64,000 nucleotides of DNA from an uncultured Bacteroidota bacterium (GTDB taxonomy: Bacteria; Bacteroidota; Bacteroidia; UBA4408). The DNA lies in NCBI GenBank assembly GCA_903840505.1, contig CAIMGI010000187.1, positions 18,812 through 82,811 on the forward strand. The letters are read 5' to 3'. Below the pieces are notes generated by a model that ran no database searches, was not told where the DNA came from, and saw nothing but the letters and a program-made list of their open reading frames with translations. Below are positions 29,799-39,875 of the stretch, piece by piece. Every line of letters begins with the position of its first letter. Within the stretch, counting starts at the first letter, position 1. The translations under genes were made by a program, and so were the position numbers.

Positions 29799-30848
29799 AT
29801 GGTGTTATCTACAAAAGTAAGCATAATTTCAAGTTTAAGAAAGGGATTGCCCCGAATATCGGTTTTTATGTTTTTGCTGTGTTGTTCGTGCAAGCAAAAT
29901 AAGCTGGACGTAAACGTTTCCAACATAAAACTTTCGGTTGATTGCAAGCGTTTCGATTATGATTTGTTTAGCCTCAGATGCCCAGTAGAAGCTGCCGGTA
30001 TAAATACTTTAAGAAATAAGTACGGAAATTTTGTTGACCGATTTGGTGCAAACATCATAAAAATTGGTTCTCCTGAGTCGCCTTCTTATGCAGCTAATTT
30101 GAGTAATTTTTTATCCGACAACGATATGCGTACTGTTTATGGGGATGTTAAAAGTCAATACCCAAATACAGATGAATTAAACAAAGAGCTTACCGATGCT
30201 TTTAAACATTACAAATATTATTTCCCAAATAAAACTATTCCGCAGGTAGTAACCTATGTTTCGGGTTTTAATTATGCCATTGTTGCCGATGATACTACGT
30301 TGGGAATTGGCTTGGATATGTACTTAGGAGCAGATTATAAATATTACCAACTGATGCAGTTGCCAAAATATAGAACAGCATTAATGCGCAAAGAGCGCAT
30401 TGCCATTGATGCGCTCAAATCGTGGATTTCAACTGAGTTTGAAGCCGACATTACAAAGACCGATTTGCTTTCACAAATTATTCACGAGGGTAAAATTATG
30501 TATGCCTTGGATGCTTTGTTTCCTGCTGCCCACGATTCACTTAAAATGGGCTATTCGAAAAAGCAAAACGATTGGGCAAAAGTGAGTGAAGCTCAAATAT
30601 GGGCATACTTTATTGATAAAAAATTATTGTTCTCCACCAATTATGGAGAGAATATGAAATTCCTGAACGATGCTCCTTTTACTTCGGGTTTACCACGCGA
30701 TTCGCCTCCTAAAATTGGCGTGTGGTTGGGTTGGCAAATAGTGAGGGCCTATATGAATACTAAATCCGACATTTCGTTGGAAGCATTGTTTACTGAAAAA
30801 GACGCACAAAAAATACTTTCACAATCAAAATACAAACCTGCTAAATAA
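29799..30848 (+). CDS. gldB: Gliding motility lipoprotein GldB
   Basis: A ~330-aa lipoprotein (lipobox LLCCSC) immediately upstream of a gldC-like gene, as in the F. johnsoniae gldB-gldC operon. The start is uncertain because the gap to the divergent gene is only ~21 bp. Confidence 0.6.
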   Translation: MVLSTKVSIISSLRKGLPRISVFMFLLCCSCKQNKLDVNVSNIKLSVDCKRFDYDLFSLRCPVEAAGINTLRNKYGNFVDRFGANIIKIGSPESPSYAANLSNFLSDNDMRTVYGDVKSQYPNTDELNKELTDAFKHYKYYFPNKTIPQVVTYVSGFNYAIVADDTTLGIGLDMYLGADYKYYQLMQLPKYRTALMRKERIAIDALKSWISTEFEADITKTDLLSQIIHEGKIMYALDALFPAAHDSLKMGYSKKQNDWAKVSEAQIWAYFIDKKLLFSTNYGENMKFLNDAPFTSGLPRDSPPKIGVWLGWQIVRAYMNTKSDISLEALFTEKDAQKILSQSKYKPAK

Positions 30849-30856
30849 AAGCTATA

Positions 30857-31195
30857 ATGAAAACTTCCGAAATAAATTTCACGATTAAATTAGATCAAAA
30901 TAACCTACCCGAAAGCATAGATTGGGAAGCAACCGATTCGGGTGTGGATGGTAAAATACCAAGCAAAGCAGTAATGTTAGCCGTGTGGGACCCAAAAGAA
31001 AACAACACCTTGAAAATAGATTTGTGGACAAAGGATATGATGGTGGATGAAATGAAATTGTTTTTTCATCAAACCTTGCTAAGTATGGCGGGCACCTTTG
31101 AACGTGCTACAGGCGAAGATAAAATGGCGGGAGATATGAAGGATTTTTGCCAGTATTTTGCCGAGAAAATGAATTTGTTGGAGAAGAAGAATTAG
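30857..31195 (+). CDS. gldC: Gliding motility-associated protein GldC
   Basis: 112-aa cytoplasmic protein. Its conserved blocks (IDLWTKDMMVDEMK, FFHQTLLSMA, DFCQYFAEK) are characteristic of GldC, and it lies 8 bp after gldB. Confidence 0.65.
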   Translation: MKTSEINFTIKLDQNNLPESIDWEATDSGVDGKIPSKAVMLAVWDPKENNTLKIDLWTKDMMVDEMKLFFHQTLLSMAGTFERATGEDKMAGDMKDFCQYFAEKMNLLEKKN

Positions 31196-31349: not shown

Positions 31350-31356
31350 ATTTTAG

Positions 31357-31430
31357 TGGAGAATATCGGATTCGAACCGATCACCTCTTCACTGCCAGCG
31401 AAGCGCTCTAGCCAAATGAGCTAATTCCCC
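31357..31430 (-). tRNA. tRNA-Ala (anticodon GGC)
   Basis: The reverse complement folds as a canonical 74-nt cloverleaf, with acceptor GGGGAAT/ATTCTCC, anticodon loop CTGGCAG and a T-arm with TTCGAAT. CCA is not encoded. Confidence 0.85.
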
Positions 31431-32135
31431 TTACAATCACCGAAGCTTTAGCATAGGTGGTTTATAGTTATTATAAAGAGCCCTAATGATATTGCACTTA
31501 ATTTGCCCAAAAGTATATAAAATATTGGAATTTAACGAGATTTCGAAATAAACGTAAGTGCTTGTATATTTGGTTTCCTGTACAACGTTCTGTCTATAAA
31601 AACACTCGAATTCCACATTCCATAACAGTTCATCGGAAAGGGCAACGACTCCCCCAATACAGTAAAAACCAATAATCGCTTTTGCACATAATGTCGGAAA
31701 TTGTGGTTGCCTAAAATCAAACACTCGAGCAAGAGTAGAACACGTATTGGGATTTATGGAACAAATTACGAATTGGTTATTTATACACTCAGTAGGAATA
31801 TTACGAGCAACTGGAATAACAGGGCTTATCAATTTAACCTGCAATTTATTTAGGTATGAACAAACTAAATAAGACTTTAAGCGCAATACCTTGTCGGGTA
31901 GAGAGATAGTTAGGCAGGTAAATAGATAGGGAAATTATGACGATGAAAGAAAAAACATTGTATTGTTGAAAAACAGATTACAAAAAATCGTTTAACGGTG
32001 CCTGCAATTCTTGTTCAAATCTATAAAAAAGAATACTTTAAGCCAATCTGTATGAGATTTTTTATTATATTTAGCTTTTATTTTTTAAAAGGCAAAGCAT
32101 TTTCAGTTTGCATAAATAATAAAACGGTAGGGTAT

Positions 32136-33125
32136 ATGACAAAAGTTTATCTTTTATTGTTATCAATTTATTTCCTTTCTATCACAACTGTTGTGGCGCA
32201 GGATTCTATAAAAAAGGCAGCTCCCCAATCTGCCGGTGTTGTAGCACAGGATTCTATAAAAAAAGGAGCACCCCAACCTGCCGATACTTTAAAAAAATCT
32301 ATTGTTCCCGGTTCAAGTAAAACTAATGTACCTGACACTACCGTAAAAAGGGGTTCAACTATTGATGCTGGAATAGGGGTTGCTGTTTCGCCAAGCACTT
32401 TGCGCTTTAATTTGAAACCGGGTAATGCCCAAACAAAAACCATTAAGGTTACTAATGATACTAAAGTAGCGAAGAAATTTAATGTTACCGTACAGGAATT
32501 TAGAGCAAGTGAATTAGGGAAACCCGTTTATTCAAAAATCGGGGAAAGTAAATTTGGTCTTGCAAAATGGTTAAACATTTCTCCCTCCTATATTGAATTA
32601 AGAGCAGGTGAGAAAAAAAACATTAATGTGCAGTTGGATATACCCGATGTTGATAGTGCGGCAATAGCAGGTTGGGTAATTATAGCCATTGATGAAGTAC
32701 GCGATAGAGCCCCTTTAGACCAGTCATCAACGAATAAAAACACCCTTGCGCTTGGAATTGTTCCTTCCATAGGATTTGGAGTGTATGTATTTCAAAATCC
32801 TCCCGAAGTAAATAGCCATAATGTTGAAATTACAAGCTTTAAGTATAACGAAACGGGGAATAAAAGAATTGTTGAAATGGAATGTAAAAATATAGGAAAC
32901 GGAATAGGTTTTTGCAGTAATTATTTGGAGCTAATTAATTTAACGACAGGTGAACAAACAAAGTTGCCAATAAAGCAGGTAACAATACTACCAGGATTTG
33001 TAAGAAAGTTTTATTTTGAGTTGTCTTCTACTTTAAAGCCTGGCAAATACTCGGCTGCGGGGGTCCTTGATTTTGGAAGCAAAGAGTATGTACAAACTGC
33101 TGAGCTAGAATTTTTAATACAATAA
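32136..33125 (+). CDS. Secreted two-Ig-like-domain protein, putative periplasmic chaperone of the adjacent fibre operon
   Basis: Signal peptide (MTKVYLLLLSIYFLSITTVVAQ) and a duplicated 16-aa linker. Two ~110-aa beta-rich domains follow, with PapD-like strand patterns (VSPSTLRFNLKPG..TKTIKVTN....FNVTVQEF). The chaperone role is inferred. Confidence 0.4.
   Translation: MTKVYLLLLSIYFLSITTVVAQDSIKKAAPQSAGVVAQDSIKKGAPQPADTLKKSIVPGSSKTNVPDTTVKRGSTIDAGIGVAVSPSTLRFNLKPGNAQTKTIKVTNDTKVAKKFNVTVQEFRASELGKPVYSKIGESKFGLAKWLNISPSYIELRAGEKKNINVQLDIPDVDSAAIAGWVIIAIDEVRDRAPLDQSSTNKNTLALGIVPSIGFGVYVFQNPPEVNSHNVEITSFKYNETGNKRIVEMECKNIGNGIGFCSNYLELINLTTGEQTKLPIKQVTILPGFVRKFYFELSSTLKPGKYSAAGVLDFGSKEYVQTAELEFLIQ
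32198..32293 (+). repeat. 48-bp direct tandem duplication encoding VVAQDSIKK(A/G)APQ(S/P)A(G/D)
   Basis: gttgtggcgcaggattctataaaaaaggcagctccccaatctgccggt / gttgtagcacaggattctataaaaaaaggagcaccccaacctgccgat. Confidence 0.8.
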
Positions 33126-33276
33126 AAAACTTAATATTTTAACCTAAAATATGATACAAAAAGAAAGATAAAGGACAACGTGTTTTCATAGTCGCCTAGG
33201 GCGATATTTGAAAAGGCGCTTAAGCTCGCATAGTTAGTCTTTTTAAATCAATAAAATAAACTTAAACTCTTTATTT

Positions 33277-34074
33277 ATGAAAAAAATAATTTTTATAGCT
33301 TTAGTAGCAGCAGGGTCAATTCTAGCATCTAATTCTTATGCGCAGTTAATAGATGAAAAAAACGTAACTATTACAATGGATTTGCAACCAATTTTGCAAT
33401 TGAACATGACTACTCCTGATCAAATTGATTTCGTATTTGATGAAATTCCTGAATACATTGGAGGTATCACTAAATACGCAGGAACTGTTCTTAAAGTAAG
33501 CTCTTCTGTATCTTGGGATCTTTATGCAGCAGCTAGTTCCAATGCTCATTTGGGCGGTGTAGGAGATATTTGGGATCAACAAGTTATTTATGGTGCAGGT
33601 ACTTCTGCTGGTGCGAGAAGTGACTTACCCCTAAACTTGCTGGAAATGCATCAATTTGGACCAAACAATTTTCCTGGTACAGCCACAAACTTTGCCGACT
33701 ATAGCGGAGCATTCCGCCCGGTATCCGGTTTAGGTACTAACGATGGACAAAATAACGTGTATGTAAGCGCAGCTGGTACACCTTATGTTTCCCCTCCTGA
33801 TGGTGAGAAATACATTAATGGCGGTGAAGCTGCAATAGCAACAGCTTTGGTACCAGGGGGGTCTTATTTGACAACACTTTTTCCAGTTGGAACAAGTGAT
33901 TACTATTTTGTAATTGACTACCGTGTCCTTCCGGGCTTACCTGCTATTTTTCCACTTGCTTCTGATAATACAGGTGCTGTAAATGACTTAGTAACTTCAG
34001 GTGCTGTAGGTGATTATGCACAACCTGGTGTTTACACTATGGATGTGAAATATGTTTTAATTGAAAATCAATAG
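33277..34074 (+). CDS. Secreted fibre-subunit-like protein A (paralog of next gene)
   Basis: Signal peptide. The N-terminus has alternating hydrophobics (NVTITMDLQPILQL), a conserved IDFVFD...IGGI block and a C-terminal DYRVLPG...VKYVLIEN beta-strand. Length is 265 aa. Confidence 0.45.
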   Translation: MKKIIFIALVAAGSILASNSYAQLIDEKNVTITMDLQPILQLNMTTPDQIDFVFDEIPEYIGGITKYAGTVLKVSSSVSWDLYAAASSNAHLGGVGDIWDQQVIYGAGTSAGARSDLPLNLLEMHQFGPNNFPGTATNFADYSGAFRPVSGLGTNDGQNNVYVSAAGTPYVSPPDGEKYINGGEAAIATALVPGGSYLTTLFPVGTSDYYFVIDYRVLPGLPAIFPLASDNTGAVNDLVTSGAVGDYAQPGVYTMDVKYVLIENQ

Positions 34075-34134
34075 TCCCTTTATATAAACCCCTCGAATCG
34101 TTTTTGTTTCGGGGGGGTTATTAAATTATAGTTT

Positions 34135-34758
34135 ATGAGGCTGTTAATAGTAATTCTCTTTTTAATAGTGACCAAACCTGTTTTTTCTCAATGCCCCCTT
34201 GTGGTTACTGCAGAATGTGCAGGAGTTCCTATGAGTGGCATTATTGTAAGTGCCAGCCAATTAGAAAATATAGATTTTACATTTGATAGTTTTTCAAAAA
34301 TAATTGGCGGTATCGGCATGAGTGGAAAAACACAATTGCGAGTGAAAGTACAAGCAAATACAGCTCTTTGTAAGTGGGGCTTGTATATGACCATTGATAA
34401 TATTGGCGCAGTAGGTGCAACTGATTGGAGTAGCAATGTTATATACGGGACAAGTGGTAACCCCCCCGGGTTGGATTTATTAAAAGTAGAAGTATATAAT
34501 GGCTGTAACACACCCATTAATAATCGTGTTTATCAAGCGTTTGTTACCAATGCGCAAATGATACCTATAATAGAAGATCTAGGGGCCATTAATGTAGCGG
34601 GTTCTTGTGTCACTAATGTGAATGGGCCTGGCAATTATATAACAAATTATAATGAATTCTCTTTTACGGTTGATTATCGAATTATTCCTTCCCCATCTTT
34701 AAATATAACACCTGGTCAATATTCAGTAAAAGTCCATTTTTGTTTAGTAGAAAATTGA
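34135..34758 (+). CDS. Secreted fibre-subunit-like protein B (paralog of previous gene)
   Basis: Signal peptide and four Cys residues. It shares the IDFTFD...IGGI block and the C-terminal DYRIIP...VKVHFCLVEN strand with the previous gene. Length is 207 aa. Confidence 0.45.
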   Translation: MRLLIVILFLIVTKPVFSQCPLVVTAECAGVPMSGIIVSASQLENIDFTFDSFSKIIGGIGMSGKTQLRVKVQANTALCKWGLYMTIDNIGAVGATDWSSNVIYGTSGNPPGLDLLKVEVYNGCNTPINNRVYQAFVTNAQMIPIIEDLGAINVAGSCVTNVNGPGNYITNYNEFSFTVDYRIIPSPSLNITPGQYSVKVHFCLVEN

Positions 34759-34762
34759 GTTG

Positions 34763-37700
34763 ATGGAGAAGCTGCTAAATTCAAATATCAAAACACACAC
34801 TTTAGGAAATTTGCTATTGTATAAATACATATTTATCCTTCTTTTTTCATTATTTATTCTTCCTTTTGAGATGAGATCTCAAACACAAAATCAAAACAAT
34901 AAAAAGGTTACTGCTACTTTCAGCTCGCAAGTAATAGAGTTAAAAACAAAATCAGAATTGATATCAAATGTTTTGAAAGTAAAAAACATTAACGGTACTC
35001 CAAAAGATTTTTACATAGACGTTAATTGTCCGAACGATTGGAAGGTTCTTAATTCCACAAAACAGATATATACTGTTAATGCGGGTGACTCCATATACAT
35101 TCCCGTACGCGTCATTCCGTCTCTTTTAACATTTAAAGGCGGTTCGCTGTATATGATAAATGTTTTTTTAATTGCAACTATTGATGGAAAGCAATTGGAT
35201 AATACTATGTTTAAAATTTCTAAACCAAGCAAGAGGAGTTGGGCATTGGATGTATTACCCGAATCCCGCATTTATTTTTTAAATGATCACAAAAAAGCAC
35301 CATTTAGTGTTTCTGTTGCTAATAATGGCGAAGATAAAGAGGATATTAGTCTTTTTATAAATCATGTTGGACAGTCGCTCAATATTGCAGATACAGCAGG
35401 CCAAGAAGTTAAAAAACGTTTTTTTGACATTACGCTGAACCCTTCAAATGACACAACGTTAAAATTTTTGGCAGATATAAAGGATGTGCCTCGAAACTTT
35501 AAACGAGTTGATCTGGATAACCATAACCCGAAAGAAGCTTTTGAAACTAGAAAGTATACAATCTTTTTTAGAGCAACGGAACCCAAAACACGAAAAATAA
35601 AAAAAAGCGACACTAAAAAATCAGTTGCCGTTGCAACTAAAGTCGTCTCCGTAACTAAAAAAATTAATAAAACTCATGCTGTAAGGTACAGCAAAACACT
35701 TGACTTTATTCGCCTCTCAGATAATGTAATTGTAAACAATTATCGTAGCTCAATTATCCCAGTTTCAGTAGAAGCTAATTTTCATAATATTTTTGGTTTT
35801 CAGCCCATTGGCAATACAATTATTCGTTCAAATAAATTACTTAGCCCCACTTCGAGTTTTAACTTTTTATTACAAAATAATTTTTCCTATTATTCTCCTG
35901 AAAAATTTCTTGCCAGGGGAAACAGCTCATTTTATTTAGGTTACTATTCTAAGCATTGGGATTTTAGTGTAGGAACAAATGCAGGTTTGATGGGTATTGG
36001 AGGCTCCACAGCTATGAATAGCGGCAATGGATCTGCAGCAAGTTATCATACAAAAAGGTTCAGAGCATCGGCTTTTTATAGTAGAGGCCCTATCTTAGGG
36101 TCACCTATAAACCATAGTTATGGAGCAGGGGTAAGTGGCAATTTTTTTAATAGACTTACCTTATCAGCAGGCTCAAGTCAAAGTCGATCTTTGATTCTTC
36201 CATCGGATGCCAGTTTTGTTTTTGCACGAGCCAATTACAGAGCAAATAAGTTTTTGAGTTTATTTGTTGGTTATAATTATCGTGTATCAAGAGCTAACAT
36301 AAACGCCCCTGGTCAGATTACTACAGAAGGCAATTTTTTTAATGGCGGCTATAGTGCATTATTCCTTAAACAAAGGCTGAACCAATCAATGTCTGCCAAT
36401 TTTGGTGATACGTATTATGCGAATGTAAGGCTCAGATCAAAATTTTCTATTGTTTTATCTAATAAGTTTTCTCCTAAGTCAAGAGCCTACTTGCTTCGTA
36501 TGCGTAACAGTTATTTTCAGTCGCAAGATTCACTTAAGGGGTTTTCGAAATACGATCGCTTAGCATTCAGCAACTCTTTTTCTTATAGTAAATCAAGCCA
36601 AAAGAAAGGATCTTTAGTTCCAAATTTTTTTTATAATTATTCTCAACAAGCGCTTGCTAAAATGCATTTTAGAGGCATAGGGTTCAATTCGTTTTATGGT
36701 AATCAAGAAAAGAACACGAGAGCTTCTGTTTCATCAATTGTAGGATATAATCGTTACATAGATAGCGCTATTACAAAAGAGTTGTTTAGTTTACAATTTT
36801 ATGGAATGGTTCAATGGCAAACATTCACGATGAATGCAAATTATTATTATGGTCCGGCCGGAATTTATGGTGCCAAAAGAGTATTGTATAGCACCAATAG
36901 TTATCCTCAAATTTTTAGAACATCTCTTTCATACGAATACTTATTTAAAAATAGACGTTTTGTATTAAGGCTTCCCCTTAGTTACGCCTATAACAATACT
37001 GCTTTTTCTCATAATATAAATATTAACCCACAAGTATATTTGTTTACTTATAACGATTGGCGCCTAAGATTGGATTTGAATTATTCGTACTTAAGAAATA
37101 ATCTGCAAAAACAATTTCAATACACTTCACAATCAACATTTGAGGATGATTTAGATAAGCCAACGGTGGGCAATGTCTTTACTATTGGTGTAGGAATAAA
37201 AAAAGATTTTGGCATTCCTATACCTAAAAAATGGTCGAAAATAGCATACGGCAGTCCGACATTTTTAGCGTTCCTTGACTTTAATGGCAATAGGGTAATG
37301 GATAAGGAAGAGGCTCTTTTAGAAAACATTGTGATTAGGGTTGATAATTATGAAATATTGACCAATGAAAAAGGTTCGGCCTTTTTGACAAATATGCCTG
37401 CCGGAAGATATTCTTACAATGTATTTTCGTTGGTTGACCTTGGCGGATGGTTTTATCAACATTTGGATAGTTTAGATATTGACGGCAGAAAAATATATTA
37501 TATCCCCTATACTCGCGGAGTTAAAGTTTTTGGTAATGTGGTTATTGACCGAGAAAAATATTCGAGCGATGTTGTAAAAGATTTAGATATTTCTCGCATA
37601 AAGCTGTCTGTTATAGACACTGCTGGCAAAACACAAACCACATTAACAAATACAAAAGGGGAATTTTATTTTTATGTGCAATATGGAACGTATGTATTAA

Positions 37701-38290
37701 GTATGGATCAAAATGTATTGGGCGAAAAGTTTACATTGGCCCAAAATAATATTAAATTAGAGTTGGAGGAAGGTATGGATAGTTATTTTAACTCATTCTA
37801 TGTGATTGAAAAACACAGAAAGGTCAAGAAAAAAATATTCGGAGCTGATGGGAAATATGAATTGGTAGAGGTGGATCCTGAAAATAATAAAGCGTACCCA
37901 GCCAATAACAACAGAAATCCAAACAATAAGATTTTAAATTTTGATCAAAAACAAAAACAATTGGATTCATTAATTACCCAATTGAATATGTTAAATAATA
38001 AATCACCTAACCGTGCAGATCTACGTTTAATAGTAATAATTAAAACACAAAAATTGGCAACAGAATTAAGTTATGTTTTTTATATAAAGCTTGCCGAAGT
38101 GCCAAAAGGCGTTGCTCCCGAAGCTGCTTTGTCTGATTTGTTGAAGAAAAACAACTTGAAAGGATCGTTAAATATGGATGGTTCAATTACCTATACTGCC
38201 GGGGACTTTAAAACGATAGCCGAGGCTGAAAAAGAATGTTTGAAATATATGAAAGCGGGGCTTACAAAAGCGACCATTGAAAAAAAATGA
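34763..38290 (+). CDS. Large outer-membrane beta-barrel protein with usher-like domain order (N-terminal Ig-like domain, barrel, two carboxypeptidase-regulatory-like domains, SPOR-like C-terminus)
   Basis: The N-terminus has a hydrophobic signal or anchor. The central ~450 aa are Y/S/N/G/F-rich with alternating amphipathic strands (SFYLGYYSKHWDFSVGT, LSLFVGYNYRVSRANI). Two CarbopepD_reg-like beta-sandwich domains follow (IVIRVDNYEILTNEKGSAFL..., IKLSVIDTAGKTQTTLTNTKGEFYF). The C-terminus looks like a SPOR/RNP domain (YTAGDFKTIAEAEKECLKYMKAGL). Confidence 0.45.
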   Translation: MEKLLNSNIKTHTLGNLLLYKYIFILLFSLFILPFEMRSQTQNQNNKKVTATFSSQVIELKTKSELISNVLKVKNINGTPKDFYIDVNCPNDWKVLNSTKQIYTVNAGDSIYIPVRVIPSLLTFKGGSLYMINVFLIATIDGKQLDNTMFKISKPSKRSWALDVLPESRIYFLNDHKKAPFSVSVANNGEDKEDISLFINHVGQSLNIADTAGQEVKKRFFDITLNPSNDTTLKFLADIKDVPRNFKRVDLDNHNPKEAFETRKYTIFFRATEPKTRKIKKSDTKKSVAVATKVVSVTKKINKTHAVRYSKTLDFIRLSDNVIVNNYRSSIIPVSVEANFHNIFGFQPIGNTIIRSNKLLSPTSSFNFLLQNNFSYYSPEKFLARGNSSFYLGYYSKHWDFSVGTNAGLMGIGGSTAMNSGNGSAASYHTKRFRASAFYSRGPILGSPINHSYGAGVSGNFFNRLTLSAGSSQSRSLILPSDASFVFARANYRANKFLSLFVGYNYRVSRANINAPGQITTEGNFFNGGYSALFLKQRLNQSMSANFGDTYYANVRLRSKFSIVLSNKFSPKSRAYLLRMRNSYFQSQDSLKGFSKYDRLAFSNSFSYSKSSQKKGSLVPNFFYNYSQQALAKMHFRGIGFNSFYGNQEKNTRASVSSIVGYNRYIDSAITKELFSLQFYGMVQWQTFTMNANYYYGPAGIYGAKRVLYSTNSYPQIFRTSLSYEYLFKNRRFVLRLPLSYAYNNTAFSHNININPQVYLFTYNDWRLRLDLNYSYLRNNLQKQFQYTSQSTFEDDLDKPTVGNVFTIGVGIKKDFGIPIPKKWSKIAYGSPTFLAFLDFNGNRVMDKEEALLENIVIRVDNYEILTNEKGSAFLTNMPAGRYSYNVFSLVDLGGWFYQHLDSLDIDGRKIYYIPYTRGVKVFGNVVIDREKYSSDVVKDLDISRIKLSVIDTAGKTQTTLTNTKGEFYFYVQYGTYVLSMDQNVLGEKFTLAQNNIKLELEEGMDSYFNSFYVIEKHRKVKKKIFGADGKYELVEVDPENNKAYPANNNRNPNNKILNFDQKQKQLDSLITQLNMLNNKSPNRADLRLIVIIKTQKLATELSYVFYIKLAEVPKGVAPEAALSDLLKKNNLKGSLNMDGSITYTAGDFKTIAEAEKECLKYMKAGLTKATIEKK

Positions 38291-38315: not shown

Positions 38316-39875
38316 ATGAAAAACACACACGTATGGTTCCTCCTCTTATTGCTTTTTACTAAAGTACTAGTTGCGCAACCTCAAAAGCCTATTAAGTTTA
38401 AAAAGACCACTTCCGGTTTGGAGTATGCTATCATTAAAAAAGGGCAAGGCAAAAAAGCGAAAATCGGGAATAGGATTTTTTTGAATTATTTTTCTAGAAT
38501 AAAACTCGATAGCATTTTTGATAGTAACAACAATAAATATCCATACAGTTTTATATTAGGACAAGGTGATGTTTTAAAAGGTTGGGACGAAGGTATTGCA
38601 TTGTTGAGTGAAGGGGATAGTGCTGTTTTTCGCATTCCTCCACAATTGGCATTTGGTGAAAAGAAAATTGCTAAGATACCTTCTAATACTACTTTTTTGC
38701 TTGAAGTAAAGATTTTAAAAGTAGAAGAAGCATTTTACGATGGAAAACAAAAAGACACTGTACAGCTTGCCCTTGGGTTAAAAAAGATTTTGATAAAAAG
38801 TAGCACCGGTAAACCTGCTAGGTCATTCATGGGTGTAACATTAAATTACACAGGATATTACATTAATGACAAAAAACAAAAAAGAATATTCGAATCTTCT
38901 TATGTTACTGGCTTGCCCGCATCTTTTCAATTGGGAACAGAGCGCTTTTTGAAAGGGCTGGATATTGGTATAGCAGGAATGAAGATTGGGGAAAAATCCA
39001 TTTTTATTCTTAGTCCTGAAATGTCGTATGGAACTAAACCTGCAGGAGAGGTGCCTCTTGGAGCAATAGTCTATTTTGATATAGAATTATTGGCAGTAAA
39101 CAATCCATTTTTTGATGCAAGCGGAAAGGATACTATTAAAACAAAAAGTGGCTTAGCTATTATAGTTATTGATCCGGGGGCAGGACCGTTAATAAATAGA
39201 GGAAATTATATTACGATGCATTATACAGGTTTTTTAAAAAATGGAGAAGGAAATAAAATAATATTTGATAATACCATTGAGAGGAAACAACCGGTTGTGT
39301 TCAGGCCAAATTCCCCCAACTTATTAAAAGGATGGACAGAAGCCTCTTTATTGCTTCGCAAAGGGGCAAAAGCCATTTTAATAATCCCTCCTCAATTGGC
39401 TTACGGAGACATAGAGTTATCAAGGGTTCCAAAAAACTCAACGGTTTTTTTTGATATTGAAATAACGAATGTAAGCGAACCATTTTTTAATGTAACCAAT
39501 AAAGATACGGTTACATTGAGCTCAGGCTTAAAATATATCGTTGCAGCCTATGGAGATGGAGTGCTACCAAATCCAATAAAAGCTTTTACGGGGAAAGTTG
39601 TGGTTGTAAATTATGTGGGATTTATTTTAGACTCTTTACGTAAGCCCATTGTTTTTGATACATCAATTGAAAGAGGTAACCCGCTTGAATTTAAACTAGG
39701 AGCAGGTAAAGTAATTAAGGGGATGGAAGAGGGTGTTTTAGGTATGCATATGGGAGAAAAAAGAAGATTGATTATTCCTGGGAACTTAGGATACGCAGAA
39801 AAAGGTATCCCACCGCTTATACCATCCGATGCTACACTTTATTTTGATATTGAATTAGTGAAGGTGTTAAAGTAA
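38316..39875 (+). CDS. Secreted FKBP-type peptidyl-prolyl cis-trans isomerase with four tandem FKBP domains
   Basis: Signal peptide, then four ~100-aa units each with FKBP signatures (GW.EG...L..G....IPP.LAYG......IP.N.TL.F.IEL). It lies 25 bp downstream of the fibre operon on the same strand. Confidence 0.75.
   Translation: MKNTHVWFLLLLLFTKVLVAQPQKPIKFKKTTSGLEYAIIKKGQGKKAKIGNRIFLNYFSRIKLDSIFDSNNNKYPYSFILGQGDVLKGWDEGIALLSEGDSAVFRIPPQLAFGEKKIAKIPSNTTFLLEVKILKVEEAFYDGKQKDTVQLALGLKKILIKSSTGKPARSFMGVTLNYTGYYINDKKQKRIFESSYVTGLPASFQLGTERFLKGLDIGIAGMKIGEKSIFILSPEMSYGTKPAGEVPLGAIVYFDIELLAVNNPFFDASGKDTIKTKSGLAIIVIDPGAGPLINRGNYITMHYTGFLKNGEGNKIIFDNTIERKQPVVFRPNSPNLLKGWTEASLLLRKGAKAILIIPPQLAYGDIELSRVPKNSTVFFDIEITNVSEPFFNVTNKDTVTLSSGLKYIVAAYGDGVLPNPIKAFTGKVVVVNYVGFILDSLRKPIVFDTSIERGNPLEFKLGAGKVIKGMEEGVLGMHMGEKRRLIIPGNLGYAEKGIPPLIPSDATLYFDIELVKVLK

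Follow-up and report, generated by a model that had tools for sequence, protein, structure and literature searches.

The Locus and Its Genes

The window analyzed in this work, a stretch of 64,000 nucleotides of DNA from an uncultured member of Bacteroidota, carries four compactly arranged open reading frames, g1–g4, all located on the + strand. The first-pass annotation of this DNA had described four closely spaced genes of the same strand, and the measured intergenic gaps of 151, 60, and 1–4 bp agree with that description. A Sec-type signal peptide can be read from the sequence at the start of each of the four. The features discussed below, including a fifth gene that begins 25 bp after g4, are the following:

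32136..33125, + strand: g1, candidate periplasmic PapD-like two-domain chaperone, 329 aa
32189..32283, + strand: 48-bp tandem duplication within g1 (TRF: period 48, 2.0 copies, 87% match)
32745..32801, + strand: g1 aa 204–222 (LALGIVPSIGFGVYVFQNP), candidate complementing strand (hhalign to FimC-type chaperones)
33277..34074, + strand: g2, major pilin of the TLP-1 fibril protomer family, 265 aa (profile and BLASTP against PDB 9IKJ/9IKK)
33343..33390, + strand: g2 aa 23–38 (QLIDEKNVTITMDLQP), N-terminal donor strand, beta1 (conservation and alignment to TLP-1 chains)
34135..34758, + strand: g3, Cys-rich minor pilin paralogue of g2, 207 aa (BLASTP against g2)
34760..38290, + strand: g4, putative platform for assembly at the outer membrane, resembling ushers in position and domain order (ORF and homologs)
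34892..35584, + strand: g4 aa ~45–275, tandem Ig-like module, g1-related (chaperone-like; hhalign)
35747..37234, + strand: g4 aa ~330–825, predicted outer-membrane beta-barrel of ~24–26 amphipathic strands (family-averaged beta-amphipathicity scan)
37262..37819, + strand: g4 aa ~835–1020, two transthyretin/CarboxypepD_reg-like beta-sandwich domains (Pfam)
38063..38287, + strand: g4 aa 1102–1176, SPOR-like peptidoglycan-binding C-terminal domain (domain profile)
38316..39875, + strand: g5, secreted multi-FKBP peptidyl-prolyl isomerase, 519 aa (FKBP_C Pfam match)

Conservation of the Gene Set

Gene neighborhoods were compared across Bacteroidota, as had been proposed when the locus was first described, over 84 loci, namely the window and 83 loci from other contigs, nearly all of them labeled as Bacteroidota MAGs. 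The four-gene set was found together on one strand in 78 of the 84, and the remaining six are cut by contig ends. Among the 78 complete cassettes, the order is g1-g2-g3-g4 in 68, g2-g3-g4-(g5)-g1 in eight, and g2-g1-g3-g4 in two; across the loci, the gap between g3 and g4 has a median of 3 bp. Every other flanking family is confined to 14 loci or fewer in this comparison. The co-occurrence exceeds chance, and the four genes are strictly co-inherited. The g5 gene accompanies the cassette as an optional accessory in some lineages only: it is adjacent and on the same strand in 9 of the 84 loci, lies between g4 and g1 in three of these nine, and also follows the cassette in contig P0002.

The Major Pilin and the TLP-1 Fibril

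The TLP-1a/b fibrils (PDB 9IKJ/9IKK) are 8-nm tubular fibrils from pond water whose structures were determined by cryo-EM in 2024 (PMC11494351). In these fibrils, strand beta1 of protomer n+4 inserts into protomer n and completes its Ig-like fold (PMC11494351); with the donor four protomers away, four donor-strand-exchange chains run in parallel and make up the 8-nm tubule. The TLP-1 sequence was derived from the density only, without a report of any gene, species, operon, or assembly factor to go with it, and metagenomics and mass spectrometry failed to assign a gene or species (PMC11494351). Our literature search found no paper in which TLP-1 is connected with genes, with a chaperone, or with a taxon. 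The TLP-1 maps contain a homopolymer only.

The family profile of g2 matches both structures (9IKK, E 9.4e-68; 9IKJ, E 4.2e-66). In BLASTP, g2 itself is 41% identical to the TLP-1 protomer over the whole mature length (residues 24–263, E 2e-48), and members of its family reach 35–50% identity, with the alignment always starting at residue 24, at the mature N-terminus. The family is large, with 767 homologs at E<=0.01, and the 120 listed are 51–60% identical to g2, leaving aside the match to itself (100%). The signal peptide of g2 (aa 1–22) is of Sec type I and ends in ..SYA before QL; neither g2 nor g3 has a typical lipobox. Directly after the signal peptide follows the best conserved stretch of the family, aa 23–38, in which D26, E27, V30, T31, T33, M34, D35, L36, Q37, and P38 are near-invariant. 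Here, LIDEKNVTITMDLQP of g2 aligns with LISEQNVTVTMDLQP of TLP-1, from chain residue 2 onward. At the other end of the molecule, 78 of 84 g2 proteins stop exactly two residues past the last strand. In chaperone-usher pilins, the C-terminal carboxylate is held by the chaperone.

The alignments establish, at the level of sequence, that g2 is homologous to the protomer of a solved donor-strand-exchange fibril. The imaged fibril was not made of the g2 of the window, which is merely related to it. Very probably, the four genes are the building kit for a hollow 8-nm fiber of the TLP-1 type.

The Minor Pilin

The paralogy of the two small secreted proteins, claimed in the first-pass annotation, is supported by BLASTP (g3 against g2: E 4e-8, 24% identity). 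Both had also been credited with a mature N-terminus resembling a donor strand, which is true for g2 and not for g3. The latter lacks a g2-type donor strand and keeps the C-terminal PGxY..V.F.L.E strand; over 82 g3-like ORFs, the N-terminus of the family is a Cys or a C-x7-8-C loop. The position of g3 is invariable, after g2 or g1 and before g4. Because the donor strand is missing, g3 is proposed to serve as an initiator or at the distal end of the fiber; a tip role is probable but inferred.

The Predicted Outer-Membrane Component

The largest protein of the set, g4, starts either at the TTG at 34760, which gives 1176 aa, or at the ATG at 34763, which gives 1175 aa, and it has 496 representative homologs at E<=1e-3. 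Its N-terminal tandem Ig-like module is related to g1: aligned with the g4 profile by hhalign, the g1 profile scored 78.5% (E 1.7e-5, 195 columns, g4 residues 34–238). Weak FixG_C and NPCBM_assoc matches were also recorded there. The following region (aa ~330–825) is rich in Y, S, N, and G with alternating hydrophobic residues, and its last strand ends in ..GIKKDF. The AlphaFold2 (AF2) model of g4 was unusable (pLDDT 28), and therefore the barrel remains an inference from sequence alone, as does its role as a pore. The amphipathicity scan, a crude method, found no plug-sized insert (>=60 aa, i.e., of at least 60 residues) in the barrel, which suggests that there is no usher-type plug.

Beyond the barrel, Pfam matches in the window g4 are CarboxypepD_reg (845–888), NOMO_5th (924–983), and SpaA (946–980); in the family, 38 of 45 members have CarboxypepD_reg and 30 of 45 have SdrD_B, and the family profile matches NOMO2 repeats in the PDB profile search. 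For the C-terminal domain, a profile built from nine family members matched the SPOR domain of CwlC (1x60, E 3.4e-4) and, more weakly, FtsN (0.17). A SPOR match was obtained in one g4 homolog (P0274, E 0.0013), and further members carry LysM (E 2e-20) or SPOR at the C-terminus. These peptidoglycan-binding endings put the C-terminal domains on the periplasmic side, where those of ushers also lie.

No relationship to ushers was detected. The Pfam families Usher, PapC_N, and PapC_C have no match in the window g4 (E<=1) or in 45 members (E<=0.01), the g4 family profile matched no usher in the PDB search, and hhalign gave 3% against six E. coli ushers and 0.3% against FimD alone. The designation of g4 as usher-like is therefore an inference from position and domain order only. 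That order (N-terminal module, barrel, two beta-sandwich domains) is as the first-pass annotation had read it, apart from the N-terminal module, which has two Ig domains where one had been counted, and the SPOR-like end, which had been missed. The domains arranged in this order belong to other families than those of ushers. In profile comparisons, g1 matches PapD/FimC-type chaperones; g2 has no match to Fim-type pilins and g4 none to ushers. It had also been stated that a match of the large protein to TonB-dependent receptors, BamA/TamA, or PorV/FadL, or homologs with well-characterized unrelated functions, would refute the proposal. No match to TonB-dependent receptor/SusC, BamA/TamA, or FadL/PorV families was found in 45 g4 members (E<=0.01) or in the window g4 (E<=1), no homolog with a characterized unrelated function was encountered, and none of the refuting conditions named beforehand was fulfilled.

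The absence of usher homology and of a detectable plug leaves room for another role of g4. The fiber and its chaperone could be real and g4 only a base anchor, a peptidoglycan tether, or a scaffold, with the pilins leaving the cell through the type of secretion known as T9SS, in vesicles, or by lysis. The SPOR-like tail suggests tethering, four chains, as in TLP-1, would be difficult to thread through a single barrel, and gld/T9SS-type genes lie nearby in the host lineage. However, neither g2 nor g3 has a T9SS C-terminal domain or a match to Por_Secre_tail, and the C-terminus is the last structural strand plus two residues. Moreover, g4 is present in every complete cassette and is the only outer-membrane candidate there, and some 500 residues of barrel-like sequence seem excessive for a mere anchor. 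We regard an anchor without a pore as unlikely, and the platform remains the preferred interpretation of g4.

The Chaperone Candidate

The g1 protein consists of a signal peptide (aa 1–22), a disordered linker (aa 23–78), and two Ig-like domains (about aa 81–220 and 224–329). The 48-bp duplication covers the junction of signal peptide and linker, so that the last residues of the former and the first of the latter occur twice (VVAQDSIKK[A/G]APQ..). In the AF2 model, pLDDT is ~96 in both beta domains; a beta strand closes the model at residue 328, and there is no membrane anchor or C-terminal transmembrane helix. The protein thus meets the chaperone criterion of two Ig-like domains in the chaperone arrangement combined with Sec export. 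Against eight E. coli chaperones, hhalign gave 92.9% (E 3.7e-7) over 194 columns spanning both domains. The Pfam signal in the family is marginal, with PapD_N in 1 of 57 members (E 0.0067) and the related MSP domain in 32 of 57. The confident fold and the hhalign match bear out the earlier description of g1 as a secreted protein with two PapD-like Ig domains, and the profile comparison identifies it as a remote homolog of chaperone-usher chaperones.

The candidate complementing strand lies at aa 204–222, where alternating hydrophobic residues align with the G1 donor strand of FimC-type chaperones and the ..KLfYRP motif. G207, F214, N221, and P222 are invariant in the family. The pLDDT drops to 71–76 over aa 191–210, in the loop before this strand, and is ~96 again from aa 211. 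Residues 204–219 are probably the strand offered to pilins, judging by this alignment; complementation is inferred, as is the interaction between g1 and the pilin, since no complex was modeled or observed. The classical cleft is another matter. In the hhalign alignment, Arg8 of FimC corresponds to R90 of g1 and the INDYG motif to VLDFG, but only 34 of 57 family members have Arg at the R90 position, and Lys112 of FimC is replaced by Tyr217. Three further basic positions are invariant in the family (R/K191, K/R276, R/K290), and their placement in the cleft is not established. The cleft pair, as far as it can be read from the alignment, is incomplete, which is a point against the assembly mechanism proposed below.

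The WxLIP proteins (DUF916-DUF3324) of WxL clusters in Firmicutes (PDB 9I1Y, 9I25; PMC10599100) have a real fold similarity to g1, but they carry a C-terminal transmembrane helix and act on the Gram-positive wall together with WxL proteins, whereas g1 has no such helix, its partners are not WxL proteins, and its host is a diderm. WxLIP_PGBD scores 26.4 bits against the window g1, below the cut-off of 27.3, and g2 and g3 gave no match to a WxL domain; g1 was accordingly rejected as a WxLIP.

It could still be a WxLIP-like adaptor that stays on the fiber or cell surface by beta-strand insertion, with the fiber assembling itself without a chaperone. Such chaperone-free assembly is reported for some donor-strand-exchange fibers, TasA and archaeal cannulae (PMC12518558). 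The missing helix and the absence of WxL proteins among g2 and g3 also speak against this possibility, and the profile homology of g1 to periplasmic fimbrial chaperones covers both domains (the 92.9% given above). Furthermore, because the host is a diderm, a soluble Sec-exported protein such as g1 is expected to be periplasmic unless it is exported further. We therefore consider a surface adaptor quite improbable and retain g1 as a chaperone candidate.

Genomic Setting

The called neighbors of the cassette in the window are gldB/gldC-like and housekeeping genes; genes of the gld/T9SS type are found near the cassette in the host lineage. A tRNA-Ala(GGC) gene is located at 31356–31430 on the minus strand, 705 bp upstream of g1, and the operon had been proposed to be a tRNA-adjacent accessory locus preceded by an AT-rich non-coding stretch. 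Neither part of this proposal is supported. The 705-bp gap has a GC content of 34%, equal to the window average (31–38%), and is therefore not distinctively AT-rich. The nearby tRNA and the differences in cassette neighborhoods between genomes would suit a horizontally acquired island inserted at tRNA-Ala, instead of an operon typical of the lineage. However, the tRNA lies on the strand opposite to the cassette, no integrase or mobile-element family was seen among the called neighbor genes in the window, the cassette shows no compositional anomaly (its GC content equals that of the flanks), and among 60 other loci a tRNA adjoins the cassette in only two and a tmRNA in one. A total of 202 representative genomes were found to contain relatives, and of the 80 loci retained, nearly all bear a Bacteroidota label. 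There is little chance that the cassette is such an island.

An unrelated operon of secreted Ig-like proteins and an outer-membrane transporter, for example for nutrient uptake, could account for the absence of any fimbrial Pfam family above threshold in the four window proteins, but TonB-dependent receptor and plug domains are absent from all 45 g4 members, and this possibility is effectively refuted by the profile match of g2 to 9IKK/9IKJ, a protein solved as a helical fibril.

Comparison with Known Systems

The closest known relatives are the TLP-1 fibrils themselves, with which g2 shares the protein family, the mature N-terminus, and the conserved beta1 donor strand. The window adds the genomic context, i.e., a chaperone, a minor pilin, an outer-membrane platform, and a bacterial phylum.

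The chaperone-usher systems of Proteobacteria (classical Fim/Pap, alternate CFA/I, and archaic Csu/CupE) resemble the cassette in their Sec-exported incomplete-Ig pilins with an N-terminal donor strand, in their two-domain PapD-like periplasmic chaperone, of which g1 is a remote homolog, and in a large outer-membrane protein whose barrel is both preceded and followed by periplasmic beta-sandwich domains, as predicted for g4. They likewise form a compact single operon and include a minor subunit without a donor strand, the tip adhesin, comparable to g3. The differences are also considerable. Neither g2 nor g4 is detectably homologous to Fim-type pilins and ushers, respectively; g4 has no plug insert that could be found, its N-terminal module resembles the chaperone itself, and toward its C-terminus it has transthyretin-like domains and then a SPOR-like one. 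In TLP-1, donation from protomer n+4 results in a tubule of four parallel chains, the Arg8/Lys112 cleft pair does not appear to be conserved in g1, and the present cassette belongs to Bacteroidota.

To our knowledge, only type V pili (FimA/Mfa1) have been known from this phylum. Their fibers also consist of strand-exchanged Ig-like pilins. Type V pilins are made as lipoprotein precursors that a protease matures, and they are not known to depend on a chaperone or an usher. In contrast, g2 and g3 have ordinary Sec signals and stand beside a PapD-like chaperone, and the donor strand of g2 is N-terminal and begins at the mature N-terminus. No FimA/Mfa-type Pfam or NCBIfam match and no lipoprotein signal were found for g2 or g3, and their assignment to the type V pilins was rejected.

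TasA of B. subtilis and the archaeal cannulae, cited as structural neighbors of TLP-1 (PMC11494351), are donor-strand-complemented fibers of Ig-like or jelly-roll domains outside the classical chaperone-usher pathway. They have no dedicated PapD-like chaperone or outer-membrane platform, whereas the present cassette has candidates for both, strictly co-inherited with the pilin.

Proposed Assembly Mechanism

We consider it likely that g1–g4 constitute a self-contained set for the biogenesis of a Bacteroidota pilus of the TLP-1 type, operating on the chaperone-usher principle. In the proposed mechanism, g2 would be exported by Sec and fold as an Ig-like domain short of one strand, and g1 would cap the open groove until assembly, probably with its hydrophobic stretch at aa 204–219. 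At the outer membrane, the N-terminal strand of the next pilin (QLIDEKNVTITMDLQP) would displace the g1 strand, and this donor-strand exchange between g2 subunits would produce covalent-like chains. Having an acceptor groove and no donor strand, g3 would be incorporated first and cap the distal tip. The platform would be provided by g4, with subunits leaving through the predicted barrel of ~24–26 strands. Its g1-like tandem Ig module would sit on a flexible Lys-rich tether, while two periplasmic transthyretin-like domains would be followed by the SPOR-like tail fixing the machine to peptidoglycan. In some lineages, the FKBP isomerase g5 may aid folding.

A simple usher model meets a difficulty here: a single usher-size pore is not obviously able to extrude a four-chain 8-nm tubule. 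A bolder interpretation, for which we see about even chances, is that the cassette represents an unrecognized class of chaperone-usher type, in which a PapD-related chaperone works with a platform evolutionarily unrelated to FimD/PapC. This platform would have its own chaperone-like module and peptidoglycan anchor, would probably be oligomeric, and would build four-chain hollow tubules, so far almost only in Bacteroidota MAGs. In that case, the orphan TLP-1 fibrils, which abound in fresh water, would have their missing genetic source in this cassette.

Significance

The first-pass annotation knew of no described chaperone-usher-like system in Bacteroidota, and the literature search supports this, as no paper on such a system was found in the literature searched; the fiber itself had already been seen as TLP-1a/b, without genes. 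The cassette connects the orphan TLP-1 structure with Bacteroidota as host phylum, with a gene family numbering in the hundreds, and with candidates for the assembly factors, which makes the biology of the fibril directly testable. The four-chain tubule raises a puzzle, namely how many platforms serve one fiber and how the chains are coordinated, to which classical usher models give no answer, and the stoichiometry is unexplained. The phylum range of chaperone-assisted pilus assembly by donor-strand exchange would widen to Bacteroidota. Only the chaperone of this cassette is recognizably ancient, and not the pilin or the outer-membrane component, which bears on the evolution of chaperone-usher systems.

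Fibre Subunits of the Cassette

The major pilin of the cassette (g2) is, by sequence comparison, a member of a known fibre subunit family, that of the cryo-EM fibrils TLP-1a and TLP-1b. A profile of the g2 family matched the PDB entries 9IKK (E 9.4e-68) and 9IKJ (E 4.2e-66), with 16 chains each, and g2 itself is 41% identical to the TLP-1 chain across the whole mature protein (E 2e-48). The alignment of TLP-1 to members of the g2 family begins at residue 24; the g2 donor strand, QLIDEKNVTITMDLQP, lies immediately after the signal peptide and is conserved more strongly than any other stretch of these proteins. Exactly two residues follow the last strand in 78 of 84 g2 proteins (..Y[IV]LLE[DN]Q). 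Conserved prolines also occur in the pilins (DLQP, LPGLPAIFP).

The gene belongs to a set of same-strand genes with the following layout:

Features of the cassette and its surroundings
29799-31195: a gldB-like gene (349 aa) and a gldC-like gene (112 aa), closely preceding the tRNA gene (Pfam GldB_lipo and GldC-like)
31356-31430, opposite strand to g1: tRNA-Ala(GGC), 705 bp upstream of g1
32136-33125, + strand: g1, ORF of 329 aa, candidate PapD-like periplasmic chaperone
32189-32283: 48-bp tandem duplication in g1 (aa 19-50), 2.0 copies, 87% match
33277-34074, + strand: g2, ORF of 265 aa, major pilin
34135-34758, + strand: g3, ORF of 207 aa, minor pilin
34760-38290, + strand: g4, ORF of 1176 aa, large outer-membrane platform, usher-like by position and domain order only
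38316-39875, + strand: g5, putative multi-FKBP isomerase of 519 aa, starting 25 bp after g4

The four closely spaced ORFs of the first-pass annotation were confirmed, with gaps of 151, 60 and 1-4 bp; in public gene calls, g4 starts at an ATG one codon downstream of 34760. Sec-type signal peptides open all four proteins.

At least 767 homologues of g2 were found, and the 120 listed are 51-60% identical to it, leaving aside the self-hit (100%). Among these listed matches all are unnamed or "hypothetical", and organism labels, where present, are those of Bacteroidota MAGs. Pfam gave no family match for g2, and hhalign of the g2 family against Fim-type pilins aligned signal peptides only. Type V pilins were rejected for g2 and g3 on the basis of Pfam scans, and T9SS cargo was rejected because the pilins carry no sorting domain at the C-terminus and their chains end at a fixed position.

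The entries 9IKJ and 9IKK come from the CryoSeek paper and represent its TLP-1a/b fibrils, 8-nm tubules whose lumen measures 15 Å and which were imaged in filtered pond water (PMC11494351). In these fibrils protomer n+4 places its N-terminal beta1 strand in a cleft of protomer n, whose Ig-like domain is thereby completed by donor-strand exchange (PMC11494351). The sequence was built from density, the authors' metagenome and mass spectrometry data gave no match, and species and identity were declared unknown; chaperones and ushers are named only in the reference list (PMC11494351). In later papers by the same group, TLP-1 still figures as a protein fibril without origin, and our literature search found no paper tying it to genes or to Bacteroidota.

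Sequence comparison identifies g3 as a paralogue of g2. Donor-strand-like N-termini had been claimed for both small proteins; the claim holds for g2 and fails for g3, as the conserved donor strand is missing across 82 g3-like ORFs. Their mature N-terminus is of two kinds, a Cys with the first core strand right behind it or a polar loop of the form C-x7-8-C. At the other end, the alignment with g2 shows that g3 retains the C-terminal strand motif. Tip subunits of chaperone-usher (CU) pili accept a strand and cannot donate one, and by analogy with them we propose that g3 may be a distal cap or initiator.

Conservation of the Cassette

Relatives of g2 were scanned in one genome per species, 80 loci were kept, and their ORFs were searched with HMMs of g1-g4. 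Such relatives are present in 202 genomes, and nearly all of the 80 kept loci are labelled Bacteroidota. The Flavobacteriales carriers include Crocinitomicaceae, Salibacteraceae, Vicingaceae and Fluviicola, and further carriers belong to Bacteroidales, Lentimicrobiaceae and Chitinophagaceae. MAG labels among loci L060, L068, L008, L057 and L064 are Bifidobacteriaceae, Comamonas sp., Sphingobacterium thalpophilum and Chitinophaga pinensis. The two non-Bacteroidota labels (Comamonas, Bifidobacteriaceae) look like binning or naming errors, since the distribution is otherwise uniformly Bacteroidota and the records are MAGs.

All four genes lie on one strand in 78 of 84 loci, the remaining 6 being cut by contig ends. 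Gene content is constant, while the order varies: g1-g2-g3-g4 in 68 loci, g2-g3-g4-(g5)-g1 in 8 and g2-g1-g3-g4 in 2, with a median g3-g4 gap of 3 bp. In 9 of 84 loci (the window at 38316-39875, L008, L014, L015, L025, L042, L046, L075 and L085) an FKBP gene is a direct neighbour of the cassette, and in 3 of them it stands between g4 and g1, which makes it an optional member. Among the remaining flanking families, none occurs in more than 14 loci. The product of g5 is a secreted protein of ~520 aa in which FKBP_C is the only domain on record, the number of domains being undetermined. To our knowledge, a prolyl isomerase dedicated to a pilus system would be unusual.

Proposed Assembly Pathway and Outer-Membrane Component

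The best reading of the cassette is a chaperone-usher-like pathway. Sec would export the pilins, whose groove g1 would keep capped until, at the g4 platform, the chaperone strand gave way to the N-terminal strand of the incoming pilin. The minor pilin would enter first and end at the tip, and the fibre would exit via the g4 barrel, itself anchored to peptidoglycan. One weak point of this pathway is g4, which is not a detectable homologue of ushers and in which no plug-sized insert was found; another is that contact between chaperone and pilin is unobserved.

Since exchange in TLP-1 takes place between n and n+4, each tubule consists of four parallel donor-strand-linked chains. These are hard to reconcile with a single usher-sized pore, which is a further weak point and hints at a platform that is oligomeric or differs in some other way. 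We know of no usher model that explains how four chains are fed by one or several outer-membrane platforms.

A full HMMER search returned 496 representative homologues of g4, and the conserved core spans residues ~40-1030. Both domains of the g1 profile find a counterpart in the N-terminal ~200 residues (78.5%, E 1.7e-5), which thus form a chaperone-like tandem Ig module, followed by a Lys-rich linker; against CU chaperones this N-terminus gave no signal. For residues ~330-825 the sequence predicts ~24-26 amphipathic beta strands joined by short loops, without any insert as long as 60 aa, and two CarboxypepD_reg/transthyretin-like domains come after this predicted barrel. The last 75 residues are SPOR-like (profile match to CwlC SPOR, E 3.4e-4), and relatives have SPOR or LysM at the same place, from which the C-terminal half of g4 is predicted to be periplasmic. 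Relatives range from ~950 to >1500 aa (for example locus L006, 13014-17603), a spread that comes mostly from differing C-terminal extensions (SPOR-like, LysM, low-complexity); the extension in the window protein (aa 1040-1176) is common to only a minority of them.

No homology of g4 to ushers was found by Pfam (window protein and a 45-member family alignment), PDB profile search or hhalign against 6 E. coli ushers; hhalign against FimD alone (0.3%) was uninformative. Of the usher-like reading made earlier, the order of Ig-like domain, barrel and two sandwich domains stands, now with a tandem Ig module and a SPOR-like tail. The 45-member Pfam scan gave no TonB-dependent, BamA or FadL match either; a SusC/TonB-like transporter was rejected on the same scan. 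The AlphaFold2 model of g4, built from only two sequences, is unusable (pLDDT 28), so the barrel and any pore are inferred solely from periodicity, composition and context. A rival explanation, in which g4 is an anchor only, would be compatible with the SPOR-like tail and the absence of detectable usher relatives; the predicted strand-rich region and the chaperone-like module speak for an assembly platform.

The Chaperone Candidate

The AlphaFold2 model of g1, based on a 57-sequence alignment, is confident (pLDDT ~96 in two beta domains). Foldseek placed a WxL-interacting protein (WxLIP) of Firmicutes first (PDB 9I1Y/9I25), followed by dozens of CU chaperones (E 1e-8 to 1e-10, TM 0.5-0.58 normalised to target). 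This Gram-positive protein is the closest solved fold, level with the CU chaperones. Pfam signals in the family are weak (WxLIP_PGBD, MSP, Cep192, one PapD_N), WxLIP_PGBD being touched by 52 of 57 relatives. A rival view takes g1 for a WxLIP-like adaptor, with chaperone-free assembly.

On the side of the chaperone reading stands hhalign of the g1 profile with a profile of 8 E. coli K-12 fimbrial chaperones, which gave 92.9% (E 3.7e-7) over 194 columns in both domains. Such comparisons use small E. coli family profiles; the lone FimC sequence gave an uninformative 0.3%, and single-sequence PDB searches with g1 and with g4 returned nothing useful. In the alignment, FimC Arg8 corresponds to g1 R90 (Arg in 34 of 57 family members), the G1 donor strand and KLfYRP motif to g1 aa 204-222 (LALGIVPSIGFGVYVFQNP), and INDYG to VLDFG. 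The Lys112 position is Tyr in g1, and the classical cleft pair appears not to be strictly kept in the family. Because fold match, profile-profile homology and aligned chaperone motifs are all present, g1 counts as remotely homologous to CU chaperones, whereas its capping of pilins by strand complementation is only inferred. The fold and Pfam matches to WxLIP also hint at a single superfamily of strand-complementing partners that takes in these proteins as well as the fimbrial chaperones.

The tandem duplication in g1 covers the end of the signal peptide, where cleavage is likely (VVAQ|DS), together with the first part of the disordered linker; mature g1 may therefore hold a second cleavage-site-like motif.

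Genomic Surroundings

The called upstream neighbours are the gldB/gldC-like genes, the mark of a Bacteroidota host that has genes for gliding/T9SS. Nothing suggests that this pair is part of the cassette, as it does not flank it in the other loci examined. Downstream lie a DPP-IV peptidase and housekeeping genes. The only Rfam match in the region is the tRNA, none falling in 31431-32135. Scans for sigma-70 promoters, terminators and the Bacteroidota -7 motif TAnnTTTG stayed at chance level. This 705-bp gap holds no convincing promoter, and its only ORFs are spurious-looking ones on the minus strand. GC is 0.44 at 33500-33999, inside g2, versus 0.31-0.38 elsewhere in the region, probably owing to the Gly/Ala/Pro-rich pilin composition or to codon usage that goes with high expression.

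The first-pass annotation described the gap as AT-rich and the operon as a tRNA-adjacent accessory locus. The rival reading as a mobile island, for which the neighbouring tRNA could be cited, is not supported, and a tRNA-linked island was rejected: GC in the gap (34%) equals the window average, a tRNA adjoins only 2 of 60 loci (a tmRNA one more), and no integrase was seen among the called neighbours in the window.

Significance

The TLP-1 fibre structure, without known genes behind it, and the principle of donor-strand exchange with a PapD-like chaperone are already known. What is new is an outer-membrane component without detectable relation to ushers, the recognition of a chaperone of the TLP-1 fibre family, and the link between this family and a four-gene cassette that is conserved in Bacteroidota.
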